From sequence record PV390659.2: 64,000 bases of DNA. The stretch is one strand, 5' to 3'. Positions 1,274-63,180 of the stretch are shown one piece after another. The stretch's first letter is position 1; each line of letters begins with the position of its first letter. The stretch comes from Escherichia phage vB_EcoM_P8. The position numbers and the translations under genes are program-made. The notes under the pieces were generated by a model that was not told the origin of the DNA, did not search any database, and was given only the letters and a program-made list of their open reading frames with translations.

Positions 1274-2613
<1,340 letters not shown>

Positions 2614-2673: not shown

Positions 2674-3192
2674 ATGGCATACTTTAATGAATGTTCACAG
2701 CTGATCGAAGGCGCTGATAAAGCTCAAAATGAATACTGGGATATTCTCGGTGATGAAAAAGACCCGCTGCAGGTTATGCTTGATATGCAGAAATCTCTGC
2801 AGGTTCGTTTAGCTAAAGATAAACCTGAATATAACCGTCATCCTGATGATTTGGCTACTGCAGGTGAAGTTGTTGATTGGCTGCGTAATCAGAAAGATTA
2901 TATTGACGATGAATTCCGTGAACTTCTAACTTCTCTTGGCGGTATGAGCAATGGCGAAAAAGATGCATCTGCTGTATGGAAGCCTTGGAAGTCACAGCAT
3001 GGTGAACGCCGTGAAACTCTAATTACTGATTTGTCTCCACAAGACCAGTTGGAAATTAAATTCGAAATGATTGATATTCTTCATTTCGTTCTGAACATGT
3101 TCCAAGGTCTCGGCCTTACTGCTGAAGAAATCTTTAAACTTTATTATCTGAAGAATGCTGAAAACTTCGCTCGTCAAGACCGAGGTTATTAA
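2674..3192 (+). CDS. 56: dCTP pyrophosphatase gp56
   Basis: MAYFNECSQLIEGADKAQNEYWDILGDEKDPLQV... matches T4 gp56; ATG at 2674 with SD, upstream track start is TTG. Confidence 0.9.
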   Translation: MAYFNECSQLIEGADKAQNEYWDILGDEKDPLQVMLDMQKSLQVRLAKDKPEYNRHPDDLATAGEVVDWLRNQKDYIDDEFRELLTSLGGMSNGEKDASAVWKPWKSQHGERRETLITDLSPQDQLEIKFEMIDILHFVLNMFQGLGLTAEEIFKLYYLKNAENFARQDRGY

Positions 3193-3236
3193 TAGCTCGT
3201 TTATTTAAACGACGACTTAAAAGCCGCGAGAATTAT

Positions 3237-3244
3237 TATAAATA
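3237..3244 (+). promoter_or_regulatory. late promoter (TATAAATA) for soc
   Basis: Exact TATAAATA about 30 nt upstream of soc ATG. Confidence 0.7.
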
Positions 3245-3274
3245 ATCATGTAATTTAAATAAAAGGAGAATTAC

Positions 3275-14170: not shown

Positions 14171-14217
14171 TATGATTACCGGAGTATAATATTCCCAAAA
14201 CCAAACGAGGATAAGTG

Positions 14218-16035
14218 ATGATTAAGAATGAAATTAAAATTCTGAGCGATATTGAACATATCAAAAAGCGTAGCGGCATGTACATTGGTTCTTCTGCTAA
14301 TGAAATGCATGAGCGCTTTCTGTTTGGTAAATGGGAAAGTGTTCAGTATGTACCTGGTCTTGTTAAGCTTATTGATGAAATTATCGATAACTCGGTAGAT
14401 GAAGGTATTCGTACTAAGTTTAAATTCGCAAATAAAATTAATGTTACTATCAAAAACAATCAAGTAACAGTTGAAGATAACGGTCGTGGTATTCCACAGG
14501 CGATGGTTAAAACACCTACTGGTGAAGAAATTCCTGGTCCAGTTGCTGCATGGACTATTCCAAAAGCAGGTGGTAACTTTGGTGATGATAAAGAACGCGT
14601 CACTGGCGGTATGAACGGTGTTGGTTCTAGTTTAACTAACATTTTTTCTGTGATGTTTGTCGGTGAAACTGGCGACGGTCAAAATAATATTGTGGTTCGT
14701 TGTTCAAATGGCATGGAAAATAAATCATGGGAAACTATTCCTGGAAAATGGAAAGGAACTCGCGTTACTTTCATTCCTGATTTTATGTCATTTGAAACTA
14801 ATGAGCTATCTCAAGTTTATCTTGACATTACACTAGATCGTCTCCAGACACTTGCAGTAGTTTATCCTGATATTCAATTTACCTTTAATGGTAAAAAGGT
14901 TCAGGGTAATTTTAAGAAATATGCACGCCAATATGATGAACATGCTATCGTTCAAGAACAAGAAAACTGTTCTATTGCGGTTGGTCGTTCACCCGATGGT
15001 TTTCGTCAATTAACATACGTCAATAACATTCATACTAAGAATGGTGGCCATCACATTGACTGTGTTATGGATGATATTTGTGAAGACCTTATTCCACAAA
15101 TCAAACGTAAATTTAAAATTGACGTAACTAAAGCACGTGTTAAAGAATGTTTGACTATCGTTATGTTTGTTCGTGATATGAAAAACATGCGATTTGATTC
15201 TCAAACTAAAGAGCGTCTGACTTCTCCATTTGGTGAAATCCGTAGTCATATTCAGCTTGATGCTAAAAAGATTTCACGTGCTATTTTAAATAATGAAGCA
15301 ATTTTAATGCCAATCATTGAAGCTGCCTTGGCTCGTAAATTGGCGGCAGAAAAAGCAGCAGAAACTAAAGCAGCTAAAAAGGCTTCTAAAGCTAAGGTTC
15401 ATAAACATATTAAAGCGAATCTTTGTGGTAAAGATGCTGACACTACTCTTTTCTTGACTGAGGGTGATTCCGCTATCGGATATCTTATTGATGTTCGTGA
15501 TAAAGAACTTCATGGTGGTTATCCATTACGTGGTAAAGTTCTCAACAGTTGGGGTATGTCATATGCTGATATGCTTAAAAACAAAGAACTGTTTGATATT
15601 TGCGCAATCACTGGATTAGTTCTTGGTGAAAAAGCCGAAAACTTGAATTATCATAATATTGCTATTATGACTGACGCTGACCACGATGGTCTAGGAAGCA
15701 TTTATCCTTCTCTGCTCGGATTTTTCAGTAATTGGCCAGAACTGTTTGAACAAGGAAGAATTCGCTTTGTCAAAACTCCTGTAATCATCGCTCAGGTCGG
15801 TAAAAAACAAGAATGGTTTTATACAGTCGCTGAATATGAGAGTGCTAAAGATGCTCTACCTAAACATAGCATCCGTTATATTAAGGGACTTGGCTCTTTG
15901 GAAAAATCTGAATATCGTGAGATGATTCAAAACCCAGTATATGATGTTGTTAAACTTCCTGAGAACTGGAAAGAGCTTTTTGAAATGCTTATGGGAGATA
16001 ATGCTGATCTTCGTAAAGAATGGATGAGCCAGTAG
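14218..16035 (+). CDS. 39: DNA topoisomerase II large subunit, uninterrupted 39+60 fusion type
   Basis: 605 aa; GHKL ATPase N-terminus MIKNEIKILSDIEH..., Toprim C-terminus ...IAIMTDADHDG...; single ORF. Confidence 0.9.
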   Translation: MIKNEIKILSDIEHIKKRSGMYIGSSANEMHERFLFGKWESVQYVPGLVKLIDEIIDNSVDEGIRTKFKFANKINVTIKNNQVTVEDNGRGIPQAMVKTPTGEEIPGPVAAWTIPKAGGNFGDDKERVTGGMNGVGSSLTNIFSVMFVGETGDGQNNIVVRCSNGMENKSWETIPGKWKGTRVTFIPDFMSFETNELSQVYLDITLDRLQTLAVVYPDIQFTFNGKKVQGNFKKYARQYDEHAIVQEQENCSIAVGRSPDGFRQLTYVNNIHTKNGGHHIDCVMDDICEDLIPQIKRKFKIDVTKARVKECLTIVMFVRDMKNMRFDSQTKERLTSPFGEIRSHIQLDAKKISRAILNNEAILMPIIEAALARKLAAEKAAETKAAKKASKAKVHKHIKANLCGKDADTTLFLTEGDSAIGYLIDVRDKELHGGYPLRGKVLNSWGMSYADMLKNKELFDICAITGLVLGEKAENLNYHNIAIMTDADHDGLGSIYPSLLGFFSNWPELFEQGRIRFVKTPVIIAQVGKKQEWFYTVAEYESAKDALPKHSIRYIKGLGSLEKSEYREMIQNPVYDVVKLPENWKELFEMLMGDNADLRKEWMSQ

Positions 16036-27656: not shown

Positions 27657-28433
27657 TTATACTCTTGGACCATATATTGCTCCAACGTTTTGCCACGTTG
27701 GCGTAGACCCTATGACGGCATAACCAGCAGCTCCGCCATCGTATTCATATCCTTGACCACGAATATTACATCTACCTCCTGCGGAGCCAACTTCACCACC
27801 AGACCCGCCGCTATAGATACCGTTCACAGACCCTGCGCCAGGCGCAGAAATAGTACCGGCAGTTGCTCCTGATTGCATATCAATAGATCCGCCCGGCGCG
27901 CCAAACGGACGACCGCCACCACCGCCAAATGTCAATCTCATTTGTGAAAAAGGAGAATAATATCCGCCACCGCCGCCGCCACCGCCGCCAGCAATAGCTC
28001 CGCCATTATTAATTCTTAGTCTCCCACCAATATCATTTTGAATACAATGACCTCCAGCTGAGCCAGGACTATTGCTACCGCCATTCCCGCCACGGCCATA
28101 CATCGTTACACCGTGTATATTCAGTTGAACATATTCATTTGGTGTATCTCCGTACATGAAGAATAAAGGAACATCTTTAGAATATGATACTAAATCTCCG
28201 GTGATATTAAACACTATAGGTGCACTACCTGCCTCAAAACATCTATCTCGGAACCATTGACCATTGAAGTTATGGTCTGCTCCAAGCGTGTGAATTATTT
28301 CAACAGATCGACCTATCATATTACTCATCCAAAACGGAATGCCCATTCTTAATCGTTGGGCCGCGCCACCCATCCAATTTTGTCCTGTATTAACTACTGC
28401 AGACGATCCTACCCACGGTCCTGTTACTGCCAT
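27657..28433 (-). CDS. 38: long tail fiber tip adhesin gp38, T2-type with glycine-rich motifs
   Basis: About 258 aa from ATG 28433; conserved N-terminus; GGGGGGGGG and GGSGG runs separating variable segments. Confidence 0.85.
27780..28100 (-). repeat. glycine-rich (GGN)n coding repeats inside gene 38
   Basis: Runs of GCC/ACC/GCG triplets on plus strand encoding poly-Gly motifs that separate variable segments. Confidence 0.7.
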
Positions 28434-28444
28434 ATAAACCCCCA

Positions 28445-28460
28445 AGGGGCCGAAGCCCCT
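28445..28460 (-). terminator. intergenic hairpin between genes 37 and 38
   Basis: AGGGGC-CGAA-GCCCCT; no clean U-tract on minus strand. Confidence 0.3.
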
Positions 28461-38799: not shown

Positions 38800-39115
38800 T
38801 ATTCGTCCGGTCGATGAGACCGGTCTTTCAGAAAAAGAACTTTCAATTAAGAAAGAAAAGGATGAAATAGCAAAGCTTCTTGACCGCCAAGAAAATGGAT
38901 TTATTATTGAAAAAATGGTAGAAGAGTTTGGAATGAGTTATCTTGAAGCTACAACAGCATTCTTGGAAGAAAATTCTATTCCTGAAACTCAATTTGCTAA
39001 ATTTATTCCTTCGGGTATAATTGAAAAAATTCAGTCAGAAGCTATTGACGAAAATCTTTTACGTCCTTCTGTTGTTCGTTGTGAAAAAACTAATACATTA
39101 GATTTTCTACTATGA
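38777..39115 (+). CDS. 33: late transcription co-activator gp33
   Basis: 112 aa MTQFSLNDIRPVDETGLSEKELSIKKEKDEIAKLL... matches T4 gp33. Confidence 0.85.
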   Translation: MTQFSLNDIRPVDETGLSEKELSIKKEKDEIAKLLDRQENGFIIEKMVEEFGMSYLEATTAFLEENSIPETQFAKFIPSGIIEKIQSEAIDENLLRPSVVRCEKTNTLDFLL

Positions 39116-39765
39116 TTAAACTCCGCATGCCTGCTGGTGGTGAAAGATACATTGATGGTAAATCAGTTTATAAATTATACTTAATGATAAAACAACATAT
39201 GAATGGAAAGTATGATGTAATTAAGTATAATTGGTGCATGCGGGTGTCTGATGCCGCTTATCAAAAGCGAAGGGATAAGTATTTTTTCCAGAAGTTATCA
39301 GAAAAATATAAATTAAAGGAACTTGCTTTAATCTTTATAAGCAATCTTGTTGCTAACCAAGATGCTTGGATTGGTGACATCTCTGACGCTGATGCACTTG
39401 TGTTTTATCGTGAATATATCGGACGCTTAAAGCAAATTAAATTTAAGTTTGAAGAAGATATTCGCAACATTTATTATTTTAGTAAAAAAGTTGAAGTTTC
39501 TGCTTTTAAAGAAATCTTTGAGTATAATCCAAAAGTTCAATCAAGTTATATTTTTAAACTACTTCAATCGAATATAATTTCGTTTGAGACGTTTATCTTG
39601 CTTGATTCGTTTTTAAATATAATCGATAAACATGATGAACAGACTGATAATTTAGTCTGGAATAATTATTCTATAAAGTTAAAGGCTTATAGAAAAATTT
39701 TAAATATTGATTCGCAGAAAGCTAAAAGTGTTTTCATTGAAACTGTGAAATCCTGCAAGTATTAA
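39112..39765 (+). CDS. 59: helicase loader gp59
   Basis: 217 aa MIKLRMPAGGERYIDGKSVYKLYL... matches T4 gp59. Confidence 0.9.
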   Translation: MIKLRMPAGGERYIDGKSVYKLYLMIKQHMNGKYDVIKYNWCMRVSDAAYQKRRDKYFFQKLSEKYKLKELALIFISNLVANQDAWIGDISDADALVFYREYIGRLKQIKFKFEEDIRNIYYFSKKVEVSAFKEIFEYNPKVQSSYIFKLLQSNIISFETFILLDSFLNIIDKHDEQTDNLVWNNYSIKLKAYRKILNIDSQKAKSVFIETVKSCKY

Positions 39766-39773
39766 TTGCTTAT

Positions 39774-39781
39774 TATAAATA
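39774..39781 (+). promoter_or_regulatory. candidate late promoter upstream of gene 32
   Basis: TATAAATA about 85 nt upstream of gene 32 ATG. Confidence 0.4.
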
Positions 39782-39798
39782 GATTATAATTATCTCAC

Positions 39799-39864
39799 TG
39801 ACCAGCTATGAGGTCATACATCGTCATAGCACCAACTGTTAATTAAATTAAAAAGGAAATAAAA
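39799..39864 (+). promoter_or_regulatory. gene 32 translational operator: H-type pseudoknot plus AU-rich leader
   Basis: GACC(39800-03)/GGTC(39812-15) and GCTATGA(39805-11)/TCATAGC(39824-30) interleaved stems, then AT-rich run to ATG 39865. Confidence 0.7.
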
Positions 39865-40773
39865 ATGTTTAAACGTAAATCTACTGCTGAACTCGCTGCA
39901 CAAATGGCTAAACTGGCTGGAAATAAAGGTGGTTTTTCTTCTGAAGATAAAGGCGAGTGGAAACTGAAACTCGATAATGCGGGTAACGGTCAAGCAGTAA
40001 TTCGTTTTCTTCCGTCTAAAAATGATGAACAAGCACCATTCGCAATTCTTGTAAATCACGGTTTCAAGAAAAATGGTAAATGGTATATTGAAAACTGTTC
40101 ATCTACCCACGGTGATTACGATTCTTGCCCAGTATGTCAGTACATCAGTAAAAATGATTTGTACAACACTGACAATAAAGAGTATGGTCTTGTTAAACGT
40201 AAAACTTCTTACTGGGCTAACATTCTTGTTGTAAAAGACCCAGCTGCTCCAGAAAATGAAGGTAAAGTATTTAAATATCGTTTCGGTAAGAAAATCTGGG
40301 ATAAAATCAACGCAATGATTGCAGTTGATGTTGAAATGGGTGAAACCCCAGTTGATGTAACTTGTCCGTGGGAAGGTGCTAACTTTGTACTGAAAGTTAA
40401 ACAAGTTTCTGGTTTTAGTAACTACGACGAATCTAAATTCCTGAATCAATCTGCGATTCCAAACATTGATGATGAATCTTTCCAGAAAGAACTGTTCGAA
40501 CAAATGGTTGACCTTTCTGAAATGACTTCTAAAGATAAATTCAAATCGTTTGAAGAACTGAGCACTAAGTTCAGTCAAGTTATGGGAACTGCTGCTATGG
40601 GTGGTGCCGCTGCAACTGCCGCTAAGAAAGCTGATAAAGTTGCTGATGATTTGGATGCATTCAATGTTGATGACTTCAAAACAAAAACTGAAGATGATTT
40701 TATGAGCTCAAGCTCTGGCAGTTCATCTAGTGCTGATGACACGGACCTGGATGACCTTTTGAATGACCTTTAA
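39865..40773 (+). CDS. 32: single-stranded DNA-binding protein gp32
   Basis: [17 protein letters not shown]...; acidic Ser-rich C-terminus; upstream pseudoknot operator. Confidence 0.95.
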
Positions 40774-40917: not shown

Positions 40918-41145
40918 ATGGCTAAAGTTGATATTGACATCGTTGATTTTGAATATATTGAAGAAATTATTCGTAATCGTTATCCTGAACTTAGTATCAC
41001 AAGCGTACAAGATTCTAAGTTTTGGAGTATTCAAATCGTTATTGAAGGTCCTCTTGAAAACCTCACCCGCTTTATGGCTAATGAATACTGTGATGGTATG
41101 GATTCTGAAGACGCAGAATTTTACATGGGACTGATTGAACAATAA
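40918..41145 (+). CDS. hypothetical acidic protein (not a GIY-YIG segG)
   Basis: 75 aa with AGAGGAAAAT SD after early promoter. Confidence 0.5.
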
Positions 41146-41874: not shown

Positions 41875-42210
41875 ATGTCTGACATTCACGTAACTGGAAT
41901 TTCACAAGTAAACATTCGCTGCCAATTTAAAACTGTACCTGGGGTGACTCATATTACTTTATCACATGACCCATATTCTCGTGGAACACAGTTAACTGGT
42001 GTAATTAAGTTTTTCGGTGGAATTGGCGGAAACGAATTTACTATAGGCGATGACGAAATTGTTGGTTGTAAATTAAAAGTTCAGAAGGGAGTGTTAGAAC
42101 TTTTTAGTGATGAAGTTTTTGATGAAATCTCACGAGCAGTTAATAAAGGAATGTTAACGTTAATTAAAATGATTAAAGCCAGTGGATATGTTCCCGATCC
42201 TTTATATTAG
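41875..42210 (+). CDS. hypothetical protein
   Basis: 111 aa. Confidence 0.5.
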   Translation: MSDIHVTGISQVNIRCQFKTVPGVTHITLSHDPYSRGTQLTGVIKFFGGIGGNEFTIGDDEIVGCKLKVQKGVLELFSDEVFDEISRAVNKGMLTLIKMIKASGYVPDPLY

Positions 42211-42218
42211 GAGATAAT

Positions 42219-43247
<1,029 letters not shown>

Positions 43248-43248
<1 letters not shown>

Positions 43249-44108
43249 TGAAACAATACCAATTTTTAATTAAAGATATCCTGGAAAATGGTTACGAAAC
43301 CGATGACCGAACAGGCACAGGAACAATTGCTTTGTTTGGTACTAAATTACGCTGGGATTTAACTAAAGGTTTTCCTGCGGTAACAACTAAAAAATTAGCA
43401 TGGAAAGCCTGTATTGCTGAGCTAATATGGTTTTTATCGGGAAGCACAAATGTCAATGATTTGCGATTAATTCAACATGATTCATTAATTCAAGGCAAAA
43501 CAGTCTGGGATGAAAATTACGAAAATCAAGCAAAAGATTTAGGATACCATAGCGGTGAACTTGGTCCAATTTATGGAAAACAGTGGCGCGATTTTGGTGG
43601 CGTAGATCAAATTATAGAAGTTGTTGAACGTATTAAAAAACTGCCAAATGATAGACGTCAAATTGTTTCAGCATGGAATCCGGCAGAACTTAAGCAAATG
43701 GCATTACCGCCTTGTCATATGTTCTATCAGTTTAATGTGCGTAATGGCTATTTGGATCTGCAGTGGTATCAACGTTCGGTAGATGTTTTCCTCGGTCTTC
43801 CATTTAATATTGCATCATATGCTACGTTAGTTCATATTGTAGCTAAGATGTGTAATCTTATTCCAGGAGATTTGATATTTTCTGGTGGTAATACTCATAT
43901 CTATATGAATCACGTAGAACAATGTAAAGAAATTTTGCGTCGTGAACCTATGGATTTATGCGAATTACAATTAAAATTTCCAGATGAATTTGATGAATGG
44001 GACACAGAATCGCAGGTATTTTGGTTGAGTCAATTCGCAAAGCCGCATAATTTTGTTCTTAACAACTATGTATCTCACCCTCCTATTAAAGGAAAAATGG
44101 CGGTGTAA
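43248..44108 (+). CDS. td: thymidylate synthase, intron-less
   Basis: 286 aa from MKQYQ; uninterrupted through the active-site region PPCH. Confidence 0.9.
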
Positions 44109-44131
44109 TTTTAATTTAATTGAGAGGATAT

Positions 44132-44395
44132 ATGATTTTACGATTTAAGGATACTTCTGGTGTCGTTCTTTTTACACTTCCTAACCCAAGTGAGTTAGAA
44201 GTTCCAGGACCAAATCAGCCTATTATCATTTATGGCAAAAAATATTATACTCATAAAATGACCCGTGAGTATTTTGATAATAAAATTTCCACAGTTAAAA
44301 CTTCTTCTGACTGTTATTATGATATTACTGTTTTAACGGAAAAACAATATGACGAATTATTACCGCGCGGGCCGTCTATGCCAGGTAGTGAATAA
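44132..44395 (+). CDS. hypothetical protein
   Basis: 87 aa from ATG with GAGAGGA SD; overlaps next ORF in a different frame. Confidence 0.45.
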
Positions 44396-44675
44396 ATATA
44401 AATCCGACTTTGATGTTAATATTCACCGTGGTACATTTTGGGGAAATTACGTCGGTAAAGATGCTGGCAGCCGGGAGGCTGCCATTGAATTATTCAAAAA
44501 AGATTTTATACGTCGAATTAAATCCGGAGAAATAACTAAAGCACATTTAGAGCCTTTACGTGGAATGAGGCTAGGATGCACATGTAAACCAAAGCCGTGT
44601 CATGGTGATATAATAGCTCATATAGTTAACCGATTGTTTAAAGACGATTTTCAAGTTGAGGACTTATGCAATTAA
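44349..44675 (+). CDS. hypothetical Cys/His-motif protein (DUF4326-like, tentative)
   Basis: 108 aa; [21 protein letters not shown]...[11 protein letters not shown]; start uncertain; stop overlaps nrdA start. Confidence 0.5.
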
Positions 44676-46930
44676 TTAATGTTATCAAAAGTAGTGGTGT
44701 TTCTCAGAGCTTTGACCCGCAAAAAATTATTAAAGTTTTATCTTGGGCAGCTGAAGGAACATCTGTAGATCCTTATGAATTATATGAAAATATTAAATCA
44801 TATCTCCGTGATGGAATGACAACTGATGACATTCAGACTATTGTCATTAAGGCTGCTGCGAATTCTATTTCAGTTGAAGAGCCTGATTATCAATATGTAG
44901 CTGCACGCTGTTTAATGTTCGCTCTTCGTAAGCATGTTTACGGGCAATATGAGCCCCGTTCATTTATTGATCACATTTCTTACTGTGTAAATGAAGGTAA
45001 ATACGACCCTGAATTGTTATCAAAATATTCTGCAGAAGAAATTACATTTTTAGAATCAAAAATTAAGCACGAGCGGGATATGGAATTTACTTATTCCGGG
45101 GCGATGCAATTAAAAGAAAAATATCTAGTTAAAGATAAAACCACTGGTCAAATTTATGAAACTCCGCAGTTTGCATTTATGACTATTGGAATGGCATTGC
45201 ATCAAGATGAACCTGTTGATAGATTAAAACATGTTATTCGTTTTTATGAAGCAGTATCTACTCGACAGATTTCATTACCAACTCCTATTATGGCTGGTTG
45301 CCGTACTCCAACTCGGCAGTTTAGTTCATGCGTTGTTATTGAGGCAGGTGATTCGCTGAAGTCTATCAATAAGGCTTCCGCTTCAATTGTTGAATATATC
45401 TCCAAACGAGCTGGAATCGGCATTAACGTTGGTATGATTCGTGCCGAAGGTTCTAAGATTGGCACAGGTGAAGTGCGTCATACTGGTGTTATTCCTTTTT
45501 GGAAACATTTTCAGACTGCTGTTAAATCATGTTCACAGGGCGGAATTCGTGGCGGCGCTGCTACTGCTTATTATCCTATTTGGCATTTGGAAGTTGAAAA
45601 TCTTCTCGTTTTGAAAAATAACAAAGGCGTAGAAGAAAACCGTATCCGTCATATGGATTATGGTGTTCAGCTGAATGACCTAATGATGGAACGATTCGGA
45701 AAGAACGATTACATTACTTTGTTTAGTCCGCATGAAATGGGTGGCGAACTTTATTATTCTTATTTTAAAGACCAAGACCGCTTCCGTGAATTGTACGAAG
45801 CTGCAGAAAAAGACCCTAATATTCGTAAAAAGCGTATTAAAGCTCGTGAACTATTTGAATTGCTCATGACTGAACGTTCAGGAACAGCAAGGATTTATGT
45901 ACAGTTCATTGATAATACGAATAACTATACTCCATTTATTCGTGAAAAGGCACCTATTCGCCAGAGTAACTTGTGTTGTGAAATTGCTATTCCAACAAAT
46001 GATGTGAATAGTCCTGATGCCGAAATTGGATTGTGTACGTTATCTGCATTTGTGTTAGATAACTTCGATTGGCAAGACCAAGATAAAATTAATGAATTAG
46101 CAGAAGTTCAAGTTCGTGCTCTTGATAATCTTTTGGATTACCAAGGATATCCAGTTCCTGAAGCAGAAAAAGCTAAAAAGCGTCGAAATCTTGGTGTAGG
46201 TGTTACTAACTATGCAGCTTGGCTGGCAAGTAATTTTGCTTCTTATGAAGATGCTAACGATTTAACACATGAACTATTTGAGAGATTACAGTATGGACTC
46301 ATTAAAGCATCCATTAAACTCGCCAAAGAAAAAGGACCTTGCGAATATTATTCAGACACTCGTTGGTCTCGAGGCGAATTACCTATCGACTGGTACAATA
46401 AAAAGATTGACCAAATCGCAGCTCCAAAATACGTTTGTGACTGGTCGTCGCTGCGGGAAGACCTTAAGCTCTTTGGCATCCGTAATAGCACATTATCAGC
46501 ACTTATGCCATGTGAGTCATCTTCCCAAGTTTCTAACAGTACAAACGGTATCGAGCCTCCACGTGGACCAGTCTCTGTTAAAGAGTCAAAAGAGGGTTCC
46601 TTTAATCAAGTCGTGCCCAATATTGAGCATAACATAGACTTATATGATTATACGTGGAAATTAGCTAAGAAAGGTAATAAACCTTATCTTACACAGGTAG
46701 CTATTATGCTTAAATGGGTGTGTCAATCAGCTTCAGCGAATACATATTATGACCCGCAGATTTTTCCAAAAGGAAAGGTTCCAATGTCTGTGATGATTGA
46801 TGACCTTTTGTACTTTTGGTATTTTGGCGGAAAAAATTTCTATTATCATAATACCCGCGATGGTTCTGGTACTGATGATTATGAAATAGAAACTCCAAAA
46901 GCTGAAGATTGTTCATCCTGTAAATTATGA
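44666..46930 (+). CDS. nrdA: ribonucleotide reductase large subunit NrdA
   Basis: 754 aa equals T4 NrdA length; ATP-cone N-terminus, catalytic Cys motifs. Confidence 0.95.
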   Translation: MQLINVIKSSGVSQSFDPQKIIKVLSWAAEGTSVDPYELYENIKSYLRDGMTTDDIQTIVIKAAANSISVEEPDYQYVAARCLMFALRKHVYGQYEPRSFIDHISYCVNEGKYDPELLSKYSAEEITFLESKIKHERDMEFTYSGAMQLKEKYLVKDKTTGQIYETPQFAFMTIGMALHQDEPVDRLKHVIRFYEAVSTRQISLPTPIMAGCRTPTRQFSSCVVIEAGDSLKSINKASASIVEYISKRAGIGINVGMIRAEGSKIGTGEVRHTGVIPFWKHFQTAVKSCSQGGIRGGAATAYYPIWHLEVENLLVLKNNKGVEENRIRHMDYGVQLNDLMMERFGKNDYITLFSPHEMGGELYYSYFKDQDRFRELYEAAEKDPNIRKKRIKARELFELLMTERSGTARIYVQFIDNTNNYTPFIREKAPIRQSNLCCEIAIPTNDVNSPDAEIGLCTLSAFVLDNFDWQDQDKINELAEVQVRALDNLLDYQGYPVPEAEKAKKRRNLGVGVTNYAAWLASNFASYEDANDLTHELFERLQYGLIKASIKLAKEKGPCEYYSDTRWSRGELPIDWYNKKIDQIAAPKYVCDWSSLREDLKLFGIRNSTLSALMPCESSSQVSNSTNGIEPPRGPVSVKESKEGSFNQVVPNIEHNIDLYDYTWKLAKKGNKPYLTQVAIMLKWVCQSASANTYYDPQIFPKGKVPMSVMIDDLLYFWYFGGKNFYYHNTRDGSGTDDYEIETPKAEDCSSCKL

Positions 46931-46981
46931 TATAATTTGACTCACGGACGAGTCACTATCTATTAACTAAGCGGAAAATTT

Positions 46982-48160
46982 ATGAGCACAGTTTTTAATA
47001 CAAATCCAGTTGATGTTTTAAAAGAACCTATGTTCTTCGGTTCAGGTCTTGGTATTGCGCGTTATGATATTCAACGTCATAAAGTTTTTGAAGATTTAAC
47101 CGAAAAGCAGTTGTCATTTTTCTGGCGTCCTGAAGAAGTAAACTTGATGATGGATGCTGCACAATTTAACAAGCTTCCTCAGTATCAGCAAGATATTTTT
47201 ACTAATAACCTGAAGTATCAATCACTTTTGGATAGCATTCAGGGTCGTGCACCGTCTGCTGTACTTATGTCGTTAATTTCAGACCCAAGTCTTGATACAT
47301 GGGTTGCTACATGGACTTTTAGTGAAACTATTCACAGTCGTTCATATACTCATATCATGCGAAATCTTTATACTGATCCATCAAAGGTATTTGATGAGAT
47401 TGTATTAGATGAAGATATTATGAAACGTGCTGAGTCCATTGGTCGTTATTACGATGATGTTCTCAATAAGACCCGTGAATGGGAAAATGCTAAAGAATTT
47501 GTAGAACTAGCTAAAGAATCTCCTGATGCTGATTTTCGTTTAAATCGAGCTATTAAACAAGAAGCCGAAGCTAAACGAGCACTAATGAAATCTCTTTATC
47601 TTTGCCTTCATGTAATCAACGCATTGGAAGCTATTCGTTTTTACGTATCTTTCGCATGTACCTTTAACTTCCATAAAAACATGGAAATCATGGAAGGTAA
47701 TGCTAAGATTATGAAGTTTATTGCGCGTGATGAGCAACTTCATCTTAAAGGCACTCAATATATTATTCGTCAACTTCAACTTGGCACTGACGGTGATGAA
47801 TGGGTTAAAATTGCTCAAGAGTGTGAACAAGAAGCAGTTGATATTTTCATGGAAGTTAACCGTCAAGAAAAAGACTGGGCAGTTCATTTATTTAAAGATG
47901 GCGATGTTCCTGGATTAAATACAAATAGCATGTGGAGCTTTATTGATTACTTAACTGTATCTCGTATGAAACAGTGCGGTCTTCCATGCCCAATTACCGA
48001 TGCTCCGGTTAAACATCCATATCCTTGGATTCGTGAATACCTTAATTCTGATAATGTTCAATCCGCGCCGCAAGAAGTAGAACTGTCATCTTACCTTGTT
48101 GCACAGATTGATAATGATGTTGATGATAAAGTTATGATGAGTTTTAAAAAATATTTTTAA
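46982..48160 (+). CDS. nrdB: ribonucleotide reductase small subunit NrdB, intron-less
   Basis: 392 aa continuous ORF; directly follows nrdA with 51 nt gap. Confidence 0.95.
   Translation: MSTVFNTNPVDVLKEPMFFGSGLGIARYDIQRHKVFEDLTEKQLSFFWRPEEVNLMMDAAQFNKLPQYQQDIFTNNLKYQSLLDSIQGRAPSAVLMSLISDPSLDTWVATWTFSETIHSRSYTHIMRNLYTDPSKVFDEIVLDEDIMKRAESIGRYYDDVLNKTREWENAKEFVELAKESPDADFRLNRAIKQEAEAKRALMKSLYLCLHVINALEAIRFYVSFACTFNFHKNMEIMEGNAKIMKFIARDEQLHLKGTQYIIRQLQLGTDGDEWVKIAQECEQEAVDIFMEVNRQEKDWAVHLFKDGDVPGLNTNSMWSFIDYLTVSRMKQCGLPCPITDAPVKHPYPWIREYLNSDNVQSAPQEVELSSYLVAQIDNDVDDKVMMSFKKYF

Positions 48161-48187: not shown

Positions 48188-49775
<1,588 letters not shown>

Positions 49776-51206: not shown

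Positions 51207-51210
<4 letters not shown>
50974..51210 (+). CDS. hypothetical protein
   Basis: 78 aa. Confidence 0.45.
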
Positions 51211-52413
<1,203 letters not shown>

Positions 52414-61086: not shown

Positions 61087-63180
61087 ATGGAACTTATTAC
61101 AGAATTATTTGACGAAGATACTACTCTTCCAATTACAAACTTAAATCCAAAGAAGAAAATACCGCAAATTTTTTCAGTTCATGTTGATGACGCAATTGAA
61201 CAACCAGGCTTTCGTTTATGTACCTATACATCTGGAGGTGATACTAATCGCGATTTAAAAATGGGCGATAAAATGATGCATATTGTTCCTTTTACATTAA
61301 CTGCTAAAGGTTCAATTGCTAAATTAAAAGGTCTCGGTCCAAGCCCAATTAATTACATTAATTCAGTTTTTACTGTTGCAATGCAGACGATGCGTCAGTA
61401 TAAAATTGATGCCTGCATGCTCCGTATTCTTAAGTCTAAAACTGCTGGTCAAGCTCGACAAATTCAAGTTATTGCTGATAGACTTATCCGTAGTCGTTCG
61501 GGTGGCAGATACGTCCTTCTTAAAGAACTCTGGGATTACGATAAAAAGTATGCATATATTCTTATACATCGCAAAAATGTATCACTAGAAGACATTCCAG
61601 GAGTTCCGGAAATTAGTACCGAGCTCTTTACTAAAGTTGAATCGAAAGTCGGCGATGTTTATATCAATAAAGATACTGGAGCTCAAGTAACTAAAAATGA
61701 GGCAATTGCAGCATCTATTGCACAAGAAAATGATAAACGTTCTGACCAAGCTGTTATTGTTAAAGTTAAAATTTCCCGTAGAGCAATTGCGCAAAGTCAA
61801 TCATTAGAATCTTCTAGATTTGAAAGCGAATTATTCCAGAAGTATGAATCTACTGCAGCTAATTTCAATAAACCTGCTACAGCTCCTTTAATTCCCGAAG
61901 CAGAAGAAATGAAGCTTGGAATTAATTCATTAGCTTCTAAAACTAAGGCAGCAAAAATTATTGCCGAAGGAACCGCAGATGAACTTCATTATGACTATAA
62001 ATTCTTTTCAAAAAGTGAGGTTAATGAAGTTTCTGAAAAAATTAAAGATGTAATTCTTAATGCGATTAAAAATGAACCGACTACTTCAATAAAATGTTTA
62101 GAGAAATACGCAGCAGCTGTTAATCAATTATTTGAAGAATATAAAGATAATTGGCTTGATAAACATAATAAAACCCGTAAAGGACAGCCAGATGAAGTCT
62201 GGGAAGAAATGACTAAAAATTCCTGGAACGCAGCAAAAACTAAATTCCTCAAAAGAATGATTTACAGCTTTTCTGGAATTGGTGCAGGTCCAATGATTGA
62301 TATTACTATTGCCCGTGATGGTTCTAAATATACTCCATCACAAAAGCGCGGCATTAGAGAGTATTGTGGTTCAGGATATACTGACATCAATAATCTTCTT
62401 TTGGGTCGTTACAATCCAGAACGATATGATGTAATGAGTGAAAAAGAAATTGAATCTGCTATAAATAACTTAGATTCAGCTTTTGAAAACGGTGACCGTA
62501 TACCAGAAGGCATTACAGTTTATCGTGCTCAAAGCATGACTGCTCCTATATACGAAGCACTAGTTAAAAATAAAGTGTTCTATTTCAGAAATTTTGTATC
62601 TACTTCTTTAACTCCTATCATTTTTGGACGTTTTGGAATTACACATGCTGGTATTGGTCTTTTAGAACCAGAAGCTCGTAACGAATTGACAGTTGATAAA
62701 AATGAAGAAGGAATAACTATTAATCCAAACGAAATAAGAGCGTATAAAGAAAATCCTGAATACGTTAAAGTTCAAATAGGATGGGCAATTGATGGAGCTC
62801 ATAAAGTTAATGTTGTATATCCAGGAAGTCTCGGAATAGCAACAGAAGCTGAAGTAATTCTACCACGCGGATTGATGGTCAAAGTTAATAAAATAACTGA
62901 TGCTTCTAATAATGATGGAACAACATCTAATAATACAAAACTCATTCAAGCTGAAGTTATGACTACGGAAGAACTCACCGAATCAGTCATTTATGACGGT
63001 GACCGTCTAATGGAAACTGGTGAAGTAGTTGCAATGACAGGTGATATTGAAATAGAAGACAGAGTTGACTTTGCATCATTTGTTTCATCAAATGTTAAAC
63101 AAAAAGTAGAATCATCTCTTGGAATTATTGCATCTTGCATAGATATTGCAAACATGCCTTACAAGTTCGTTCAAGGATAA
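61087..63180 (+). CDS. alt: ADP-ribosyltransferase Alt (virion-packaged)
   Basis: 697 aa from MELITELFDEDTTLPITNLNPKKKIPQIF...; late promoter TATAAATA upstream. Confidence 0.85.
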   Translation: MELITELFDEDTTLPITNLNPKKKIPQIFSVHVDDAIEQPGFRLCTYTSGGDTNRDLKMGDKMMHIVPFTLTAKGSIAKLKGLGPSPINYINSVFTVAMQTMRQYKIDACMLRILKSKTAGQARQIQVIADRLIRSRSGGRYVLLKELWDYDKKYAYILIHRKNVSLEDIPGVPEISTELFTKVESKVGDVYINKDTGAQVTKNEAIAASIAQENDKRSDQAVIVKVKISRRAIAQSQSLESSRFESELFQKYESTAANFNKPATAPLIPEAEEMKLGINSLASKTKAAKIIAEGTADELHYDYKFFSKSEVNEVSEKIKDVILNAIKNEPTTSIKCLEKYAAAVNQLFEEYKDNWLDKHNKTRKGQPDEVWEEMTKNSWNAAKTKFLKRMIYSFSGIGAGPMIDITIARDGSKYTPSQKRGIREYCGSGYTDINNLLLGRYNPERYDVMSEKEIESAINNLDSAFENGDRIPEGITVYRAQSMTAPIYEALVKNKVFYFRNFVSTSLTPIIFGRFGITHAGIGLLEPEARNELTVDKNEEGITINPNEIRAYKENPEYVKVQIGWAIDGAHKVNVVYPGSLGIATEAEVILPRGLMVKVNKITDASNNDGTTSNNTKLIQAEVMTTEELTESVIYDGDRLMETGEVVAMTGDIEIEDRVDFASFVSSNVKQKVESSLGIIASCIDIANMPYKFVQG

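Follow-up and report, generated by a model that had tools for sequence, protein, structure and literature searches.

Bacteriophage T4 is an outlier in that it carries 15 genes of the homing-endonuclease type (PMC2988022), and several of them are known for what they do to phage T2. The endonucleases of T4 bring about exclusion or conversion of T2 markers at genes 32, 56, td and nrdB (PMC2988022, PMC2330249, PMC2790892). Genes 32 and 56 of T2 are excluded by SegG and SegF, respectively, and the seg genes themselves home into T2 at high frequency (PMC2988022, PMC2330249). At nrdB, MobE nicks the T2 gene at nucleotides (nt) 122-126, by which the T2 progeny acquire mobE together with the nrdB intron, which does not move otherwise; since the I-TevIII endonuclease of T4 is defective, this intron is mobile only in trans, through MobE (PMC2790892). 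Here we describe the corresponding loci in a 64,000-nt stretch of DNA from Escherichia phage vB_EcoM_P8 (PV390659.2), called the window below. It is the reverse complement of positions 7014-71013 of PV102577.1, the record of Escherichia phage vB_EcoM_BMB16 (genus Tequatrovirus), with which the 5.4 kb around td-nrdB is 100% identical; in all comparisons BMB16 stands for the sequence of the window. With a high degree of confidence, the region can be regarded as an ordinary T2-type arrangement of the T-even cluster frd-td-nrdA-nrdB-denA, in which the sites filled in T4 are empty and in which T4 could overwrite td, nrdB and probably gene 32.

Six insertion sites compared with T4 and T2

Alignment of the whole window to T4 (NC_000866) by blastn gave a collinear map, with sharp breakpoints at all six of the extra selfish elements that T4 has in the syntenic span. 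Two of these are introns. The td intron with I-TevI (about 1017 nt) is missing between positions 43796 and 43797 and the nrdB intron with I-TevIII (598 nt) between 47657 and 47658, each as a zero-length gap, and at both junctions the T4 exons, once joined, give the same reading frames as in BMB16, base for base. Translated td aligns collinearly with the spliced Td of T4, which has the same length (286 amino acids, aa), and NrdB differs by 4 aa from its T4 counterpart. The other four elements are mobE with nrdB.1 (about 700 nt, missing at 46926-46982), segG (about 624 nt, at 39766-39802), segF (about 697 nt, at 3155-3237) and the segment of mobA, 60.1 and the gene-60 bypass (about 1118 nt, at 15635-15700). 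The last of them went unmentioned in a preliminary description of this DNA. In T4, genes 39 and 60 are split, with mobA, 60.1 and a 50-nt translational bypass, whereas BMB16 and T2 have a fused gene 39 and none of these; gene 39 is a single open reading frame (ORF) because the mobA/60.1 segment is absent.

What the preliminary description had read from the sequence was borne out by this alignment: td and nrdB are continuous (single frames of 286 and 392 aa, none of them split), 51 nt separate the end of nrdA (46930) from the start of nrdB (46982), the 82-nt spacer between 56 and soc holds no ORF and thus no inserted endonuclease, and every T4 element named there for td, nrdB, 32-segG and 56-segF is cleanly absent. 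It had also noted that the gene after 32 does not encode a GIY-YIG protein. This is true, the gene being frd.3, but T4 segG sits upstream of 32, between 59 and 32, and it is the spacer at this place, likewise empty in BMB16, which corresponds to the segG site.

All of this is also the state of T2 (AP018813), which has td (861 nt) and nrdB (1179 nt) without introns, spacers of 51 and 99 nt, a fused gene 39, and neither segF, segG, mobE nor mobA. The 59-32 spacer is 100% identical to the 99 nt of T2, and 49 of the 51 nt of the nrdA-nrdB spacer are the same in the two phages. Because the empty state is that of T2, long known, the finding at td-nrdB is an ordinary one: the same state of td, nrdB, 32 and 56 is common, the genome is already in GenBank, and the empty loci are the textbook T2 state which underlies the literature on homing and marker exclusion, in which our main finding changes nothing. 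The nrdA-nrdB spacer contains a hairpin, TGACTC-ACGGAC-GAGTCA, that is not followed by a T-run; at this place T4 uses a terminator internal to mobE, which balances the nrdA and nrdB transcripts.

The two genes that are interrupted in T4 are less similar to those of T2 than the spacers are, with only 87% identity for td and 91% for nrdB. Each contains a short hypervariable cassette. The one in td occupies part of the last third of the gene (about 43940-44060), where residues ~232-268 are wholly unlike T4, and the one in nrdB extends over nt 481-600 of the gene (47462-47581), where 27-42 of 60 nt are identical among BMB16, T2 and T4. In both cassettes each of the three phages has its own sequence, and both lie a few hundred bases from the intron insertion sites.

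When 14 homing-endonuclease or associated proteins of T4 (I-TevI, I-TevII, I-TevIII; SegA, SegB, SegF and SegG; MobA-E; 60.1; NrdB.1) were compared with the window by tblastn, none was found. The best match (SegF, 61528-61863, E = 0.02) falls inside the alt ADP-ribosyltransferase gene and was dismissed as due to chance. No Pfam GIY-YIG or HNH match was obtained among all ORFs of the segments without T4 homology, nor among those read from the antisense strand or in alternative frames in the stretch from 39.8 to 47.9 kb. The closer search of the intervals named in the preliminary description thus left one GIY-YIG match, that of denA (endonuclease II, EndoII), which we rejected as an inserted homing endonuclease, the gene having the same position, directly after nrdB, in T4 and in T2. 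Likewise, the 68-aa ORF between frd and td, the 100-aa ORF at 51207-51509 and other ORFs specific to BMB16 were considered as degenerate homing endonucleases and found to have no support from Pfam, PADLOC, NCBIfam or tblastn. A scan of the window with Rfam at gathering thresholds revealed no group I intron either, but the same scan also missed the real td and nrdB introns of T4, which contain ORFs. The Rfam negative therefore carries no weight, and such negatives are not to be trusted for ORF-containing group I introns like these two.

Two readings of the empty sites other than the T2-type state have to be weighed. One is that introns and endonuclease genes were collapsed during assembly or lost through annotation. 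This is hardly credible: nothing was found in its favour, hundreds of independent genomes, T2 included, share the contiguous arrangement, and no reading frame is broken, the domain matches extending over the full length. The other is that the lineage of BMB16 once had the introns and endonucleases and lost them precisely, e.g. through a recombination in which the partner was an intron-less relative or spliced complementary DNA, so that the window would be "stripped" in the literal sense. Life-cycle models of homing endonucleases do include loss after invasion and decay, and indels of the T4 type do arise by deletion elsewhere in the window, as exemplified by 541 bp lost from T4 upstream of dam (see below). 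A precise loss would nevertheless have had to leave all six sites free of remnants. Homing with co-conversion would moreover have made the exons T4-like next to both insertion sites, which they are not; hence there is no sign of former occupancy. In addition, the spacers equal those of T2 or come very close to them, and the empty state is that of the majority of relatives. We thus consider such a loss rather improbable; it is more likely that the sites were never filled.

Counted over the whole phage collection, other genera included, matches of any length to the td intron were present in 260 records (near-full-length in 197), to the mobE region in 143 (20) and to the nrdB intron in 191 (118, many of them in other genera), while the matches to segG (142 records) and segF (50 records) were all near-full-length. 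Each T4 element is therefore confined to a minority of the sequenced relatives. For comparison, identity to BMB16 across td-nrdB reaches 80% or more in about 568 phage records. Each of the 27 top matches gives one unbroken alignment along all of the 5.4 kb, and among the matches listed, the best-matching other T-even-type phages are 94-97.5% identical.

The term "stripped of selfish endonuclease genes", used in the preliminary description, is thus right as far as the six T4 elements are concerned, which are absent. It is misleading in that the empty state is the usual one and without remnants, and in that BMB16 has accessory nucleases of its own. One is the ORF upstream of dam, with a predicted restriction-endonuclease fold, which is treated below. 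The other lies outside the window, between genes 46 and 47 (PV102577.1, 86404-87150, minus strand): it is a gene of 248 aa of the Mob-type HNH kind, homing-endonuclease-like, with a tblastn match to MobD (E = 4.5e-16), at a locus where T4 has none. No further homologue of a T4-type homing endonuclease was found in the rest of the BMB16 genome.

Susceptibility to the T4 endonucleases

In the systems described for SegF, SegG and the trans-homing by MobE, i.e. intron-less homing with localized marker exclusion, BMB16 has, judged by its sequence, the configuration of a recipient; the target allele of SegF differs. All six sites are empty and their flanks are 85-97% identical to T4, for which reason T4 could be able to cut or nick td, nrdB and probably gene 32. 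The proposed course of events is as follows. A co-infecting T4 would cut or nick td (with I-TevI), nrdB (with MobE) and probably gene 32 (with SegG). The breaks would then be repaired from the T4 template, and the repair would copy the T4 elements together with flanking T4 sequence into the progeny of BMB16. This would amount to homing with co-conversion, in other words to localized marker exclusion comparable to that of T4 x T2 crosses, with the nrdB intron being carried only in trans by MobE. As a whole the proposal is plausible but uneven, the indications being of different quality at the different loci.

The susceptibility of nrdB to MobE appears well supported. Over nt 85-164 of the gene, which include the homologue of the MobE-dependent nick position, BMB16 has the T2 sequence throughout; 18 positions in this region distinguish T2 from T4, and at each of them the base is that of T2. 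For td, cleavage by I-TevI is likely. In the homologue of the 38-bp homing site, the cleavage motif CAACG is present at 43770-43774 (-27 to -23), its distance to the empty insertion site is 22 nt as in T4, and all differences are synonymous. Identity is 32/38 between BMB16 and T4, 34/38 between BMB16 and T2, and 32/38 between T2 and T4. Gene 32 is 97.5% identical to that of T2 and 96.1% to that of T4, and of the 40 positions polymorphic between these two, 27 carry the T2 allele, which makes the susceptibility of the gene to SegG probable. The situation is different for gene 56, which is 75.8% identical to T4 and 73.4% to T2, with 24 positions that match neither: because the gene is a mosaic, of 73-76% identity to both phages, its susceptibility to SegF is not predictable.

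It could be argued from such differences that resistance is the reason why the sites are empty, td, 32 or 56 having become poor substrates by synonymous drift; marker exclusion would then be slight or absent, whether at every locus or at some only. Of the six synonymous differences from T4 in the I-TevI site, four are not shared with T2, and the mosaic gene 56 would fit this explanation as well. Furthermore, many combinations of a CNNNG motif and its spacer are poor substrates of I-TevI (PMC5009752). On the other hand, the enzyme has been described as sequence-tolerant, and the bases C1 and G5 of CAACG, which are the critical ones (PMC5009752), are intact, as is the spacing of the motif. The T2 site is just as far from T4 as that of BMB16, and co-conversion by I-TevI in T4 x T2 crosses has been mentioned (PMC2790892). 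At nrdB the MobE region is that of T2 base for base. Resistance thus seems unlikely to us, if somewhat less so than a precise loss of the elements. T2 is also reported to be an efficient recipient (Quirk et al., 1989), in spite of its equally distant site.

Susceptibility of the loci to T4 remains our preferred reading, against which several points have to be set. The susceptibility to each endonuclease is read from sequence only. The predictions for SegG and SegF draw on overall similarity to T2 and T4, gene 56 being strongly mosaic. The I-TevI site is 4/38 off T2 and 6/38 off T4, with two differences in the DNA spacer and two others in that part of the primary binding region which lies upstream of the insertion site, an exact combination that may or may not be tolerated. 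Finally, differences between phages in the modification of their DNA by glucosylated hydroxymethylcytosine (HMC) could modulate cleavage in vivo. The proposal of the preliminary description that these loci would be targets of marker exclusion thus stands in part. A look at the T4 recognition sites favours it where the MobE region is identical to T2, where the I-TevI motif and spacing are kept (at 32/38 to T4), and in the T2-like gene 32; it cannot be extended to SegF with a mosaic gene 56. If the proposal is correct, then in mixes of Tequatrovirus phages, e.g. therapeutic cocktails, the alleles that BMB16 has in the vicinity of td, nrdB and gene 32 should be overwritten by a partner of the T4 type.

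A predicted nuclease gene upstream of dam

The interval between 61 and dam is filled by an ORF of 186 aa (1274-1834), which is predicted to have a PD-(D/E)XK restriction-endonuclease (REase) fold and which, together with dam, is the only mildly novel lead of the window. T2 is like BMB16 in having this ORF (181/186 aa) upstream of dam, whereas T4 lacks it: the first 473 nt are missing along with a promoter-like TTTACT-17-TATTAT (1220-1248), and only the last 88 nt are kept. The segment absent from T4 measures 541 bp, and its junction lies between two ATC[G/A]CAAA repeats, a signature from which the deletion can be placed in the T4 lineage.

The members of the family have invariant residues E23, D72 and E85-x-K87, of which D72 and E85-x-K87 correspond to the catalytic D...(D/E)xK motif, and an AlphaFold (AF2) model (predicted local distance difference test, pLDDT, 78.6; predicted template modelling score, pTM, 0.77) displays an alpha-beta-beta-beta-alpha-beta nuclease core. 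Matches to known families remained below threshold. With Pfam, these were DpnII (16.7 bits, cut-off 23) and BanI (16.2 bits, cut-off 28), the former being seen, again sub-threshold, in five of seven family members, with a best E of 8.3e-5; with PADLOC, it was REase_II (E = 7e-5). No curated family threshold was passed and there was no NCBIfam match. A search of PDB sequences with a profile of the family yielded no match, so that only the comparison of folds was informative. Of the 163 phage records with the ORF, 155 have it at an identity of no less than 95%, and it is annotated as hypothetical in all. An exhaustive profile search of 1.84 billion representative proteins found 11 relatives only. 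In every context examined, namely BMB16, T2, four metagenomic lineages and Klebsiella phage Shinkou, the ORF either adjoins a gene for a D12-class Dam methyltransferase directly at its start or overlaps with it there. The metagenomic lineages range from 63% identity down to remote homologues which were detected by profile search only (P0011, P0014), and in Shinkou the ORF-dam pair adjoins ndd, not primase.

The closest described systems are type IIP REases of the PD-(D/E)XK kind (MunI; the DpnII family) that go with Dam-type methyltransferases of class D12. The likeness consists in the catalytic residues, in the overlapping adjacency to Dam and in the sub-threshold DpnII matches; unlike type II REases, the ORF is short and is found in a lytic phage with glucosyl-HMC DNA. 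One hypothesis, suggested by this linkage to Dam, is that the ORF and dam form a two-gene cassette resembling a restriction-modification (R-M) system. More specifically, and quite tentatively, the ORF, with its translation coupled to that of dam, would supply the nuclease of an R-M-like cassette borne by the phage, possibly DpnII-related and GATC-directed, and the orphan Dam of T4 would be a relic, left behind after a microhomology-mediated deletion, the 541-bp one, had taken away the promoter along with the greater part of the nuclease gene. Avoidance of GATC in enterobacteriophages has long been described. In our data GATC is by a wide margin the most depleted 4-bp palindrome, with observed/expected ratios (Markov model) of 0.29 in the window, 0.37 in the rest of BMB16 and 0.32 in T4. 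We did not retain this depletion as evidence for GATC specificity of the ORF, because T4, without the ORF, is equally depleted, which means that it does not discriminate.

If the hypothesis is true, T4 would be without a weapon or selfish module which BMB16 and phages of the T2 type possess, and exclusion in a co-infection of T4 with BMB16 could work in both directions. Its confirmation would also provide a function-linked partner for T-even Dam, whose role is unclear, and would add a restriction-like nuclease to the genes involved in conflicts between phages or between phage and host. No description of the gene pair was found in the searchable literature, which is a weak sign of novelty.

Gene order and accessory ORFs

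The features on which the comparisons were based are listed in Table 1.

Table 1. Positions in the 64,000-nt window of the genes, spacers and sites discussed
Feature	Coordinates	Strand	Basis or remark
PD-(D/E)XK REase-fold ORF, 186 aa, predicted	1274-1834	+	fills 61-dam interval; stop overlaps dam ATG
dam (D12-class N6-adenine methyltransferase)	1834-2613	+	Pfam MethyltransfD12, E 1e-50
Gene 56 (dCTPase), SegF target gene in T2, mosaic allele	2674-3192	+	Pfam dUTPase_2
56-soc spacer, 82 nt, empty segF site	3193-3274		T4 has 675-nt segF here
soc	3275-3520		
Gene 39 (topoisomerase large subunit), single 606-aa ORF	14215-16035	+	Pfam DNA_gyraseB, HATPase_c and TOPRIM_C along one ORF
Gene 59	39112-39765		
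59-32 spacer, 99 nt, empty segG site	39766-39864		T4 has 633-nt segG here
Gene 32 (single-stranded DNA-binding protein), SegG target gene in T2	39865-40773	+	Pfam gp32, E 1.8e-66
frd.3, gene following 32	40918-41145	+	Pfam Phage_FRD3, E 9.5e-40
68-aa ORF between frd and td	43042-43248	+	ATGA and TAATG overlaps at its ends; matches phrog_9550 only (function unassigned)
td (thymidylate synthase), uninterrupted, 286 aa	43248-44108	+	ORF list, ATG at 43248; Pfam Thymidylat_synt, E 5.7e-94, residues 2-286
Homologue of 38-bp I-TevI homing site	43770-43807	+	aligned to T4 exon junction and T2
nrdA.2 (DUF5496) and nrdA.1 (DUF4326), as in T4	44132-44675	+	Pfam E 6e-60 and 1.3e-21
nrdA, 754 aa	44666-46930	+	ORF list; 93% nucleotide identity to T4; GenBank annotation
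nrdA-nrdB spacer, 51 nt, empty mobE/nrdB.1 site	46931-46981		T4 alignment
nrdB, uninterrupted, 392 aa	46982-48160	+	ORF list; Pfam Ribonuc_red_sm, E 1.7e-36; length as T2 nrdB
Homologue of MobE-dependent nick position	47103-47107		nt 122-126 of T2 nrdB (PMC2790892)
Empty nrdB intron insertion site, …TTTCGCAT/GTACC…	47657-47658		T4 598-nt intron falls exactly between these bases
denA (EndoII), conserved	48188-48598	+	Pfam GIY-YIG, 28.5 bits (cut-off 22.6); 96% nucleotide identity to T4

The order of genes in the window is that of T4, with 85-97% nucleotide identity in the shared genes. The window starts with 61, the 186-aa ORF, dam, 56 and soc, and its middle part comprises 39, rIIA, rIIB, denB, 52, motA and t, then 38-34 on the minus strand. 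These are followed by rnh, dsbA, 33, 59, 32, frd.3, frd.2, frd.1, two extra small ORFs and frd, and from there by the 68-aa ORF, td, nrdA.2, nrdA.1, nrdA, nrdB, denA and rnlA, on to 30 and alt. T2 differs from BMB16 in having other small ORFs after 56, where BMB16 has soc, in its gene 56 allele (the BMB16 one being mosaic), and in the divergent cassettes of the C-terminal third of td and of nt 481-600 of nrdB.

Besides the ORF upstream of dam, T4 lacks three further accessory features of BMB16. The 68-aa ORF between frd and td, for which no match was found in Pfam, NCBIfam or PADLOC, occupies a slot which is without ORF in T4 and contains an unrelated 115-aa ORF in T2; the frd-td junction is thus a site where small ORFs are swapped. 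Between frd.1 and frd (41875-42464, plus strand), there are two non-T4 ORFs, for a DUF7247 protein of 111 aa (Pfam E = 9e-44) and for an 81-aa protein (phrog_3183). The 100-aa ORF at 51207-51509 (plus strand), just upstream of pseT and between pseT.1 and pseT in the T4 order, encodes a predicted coiled-coil protein with weak, sub-threshold matches only (GapR-like, LmuA). Lastly, gene 38 (27657-28445, minus strand) encodes a T2-type tail-fibre adhesin (Pfam GP38, E = 2.5e-71) and not an assembly chaperone of the T4 type.

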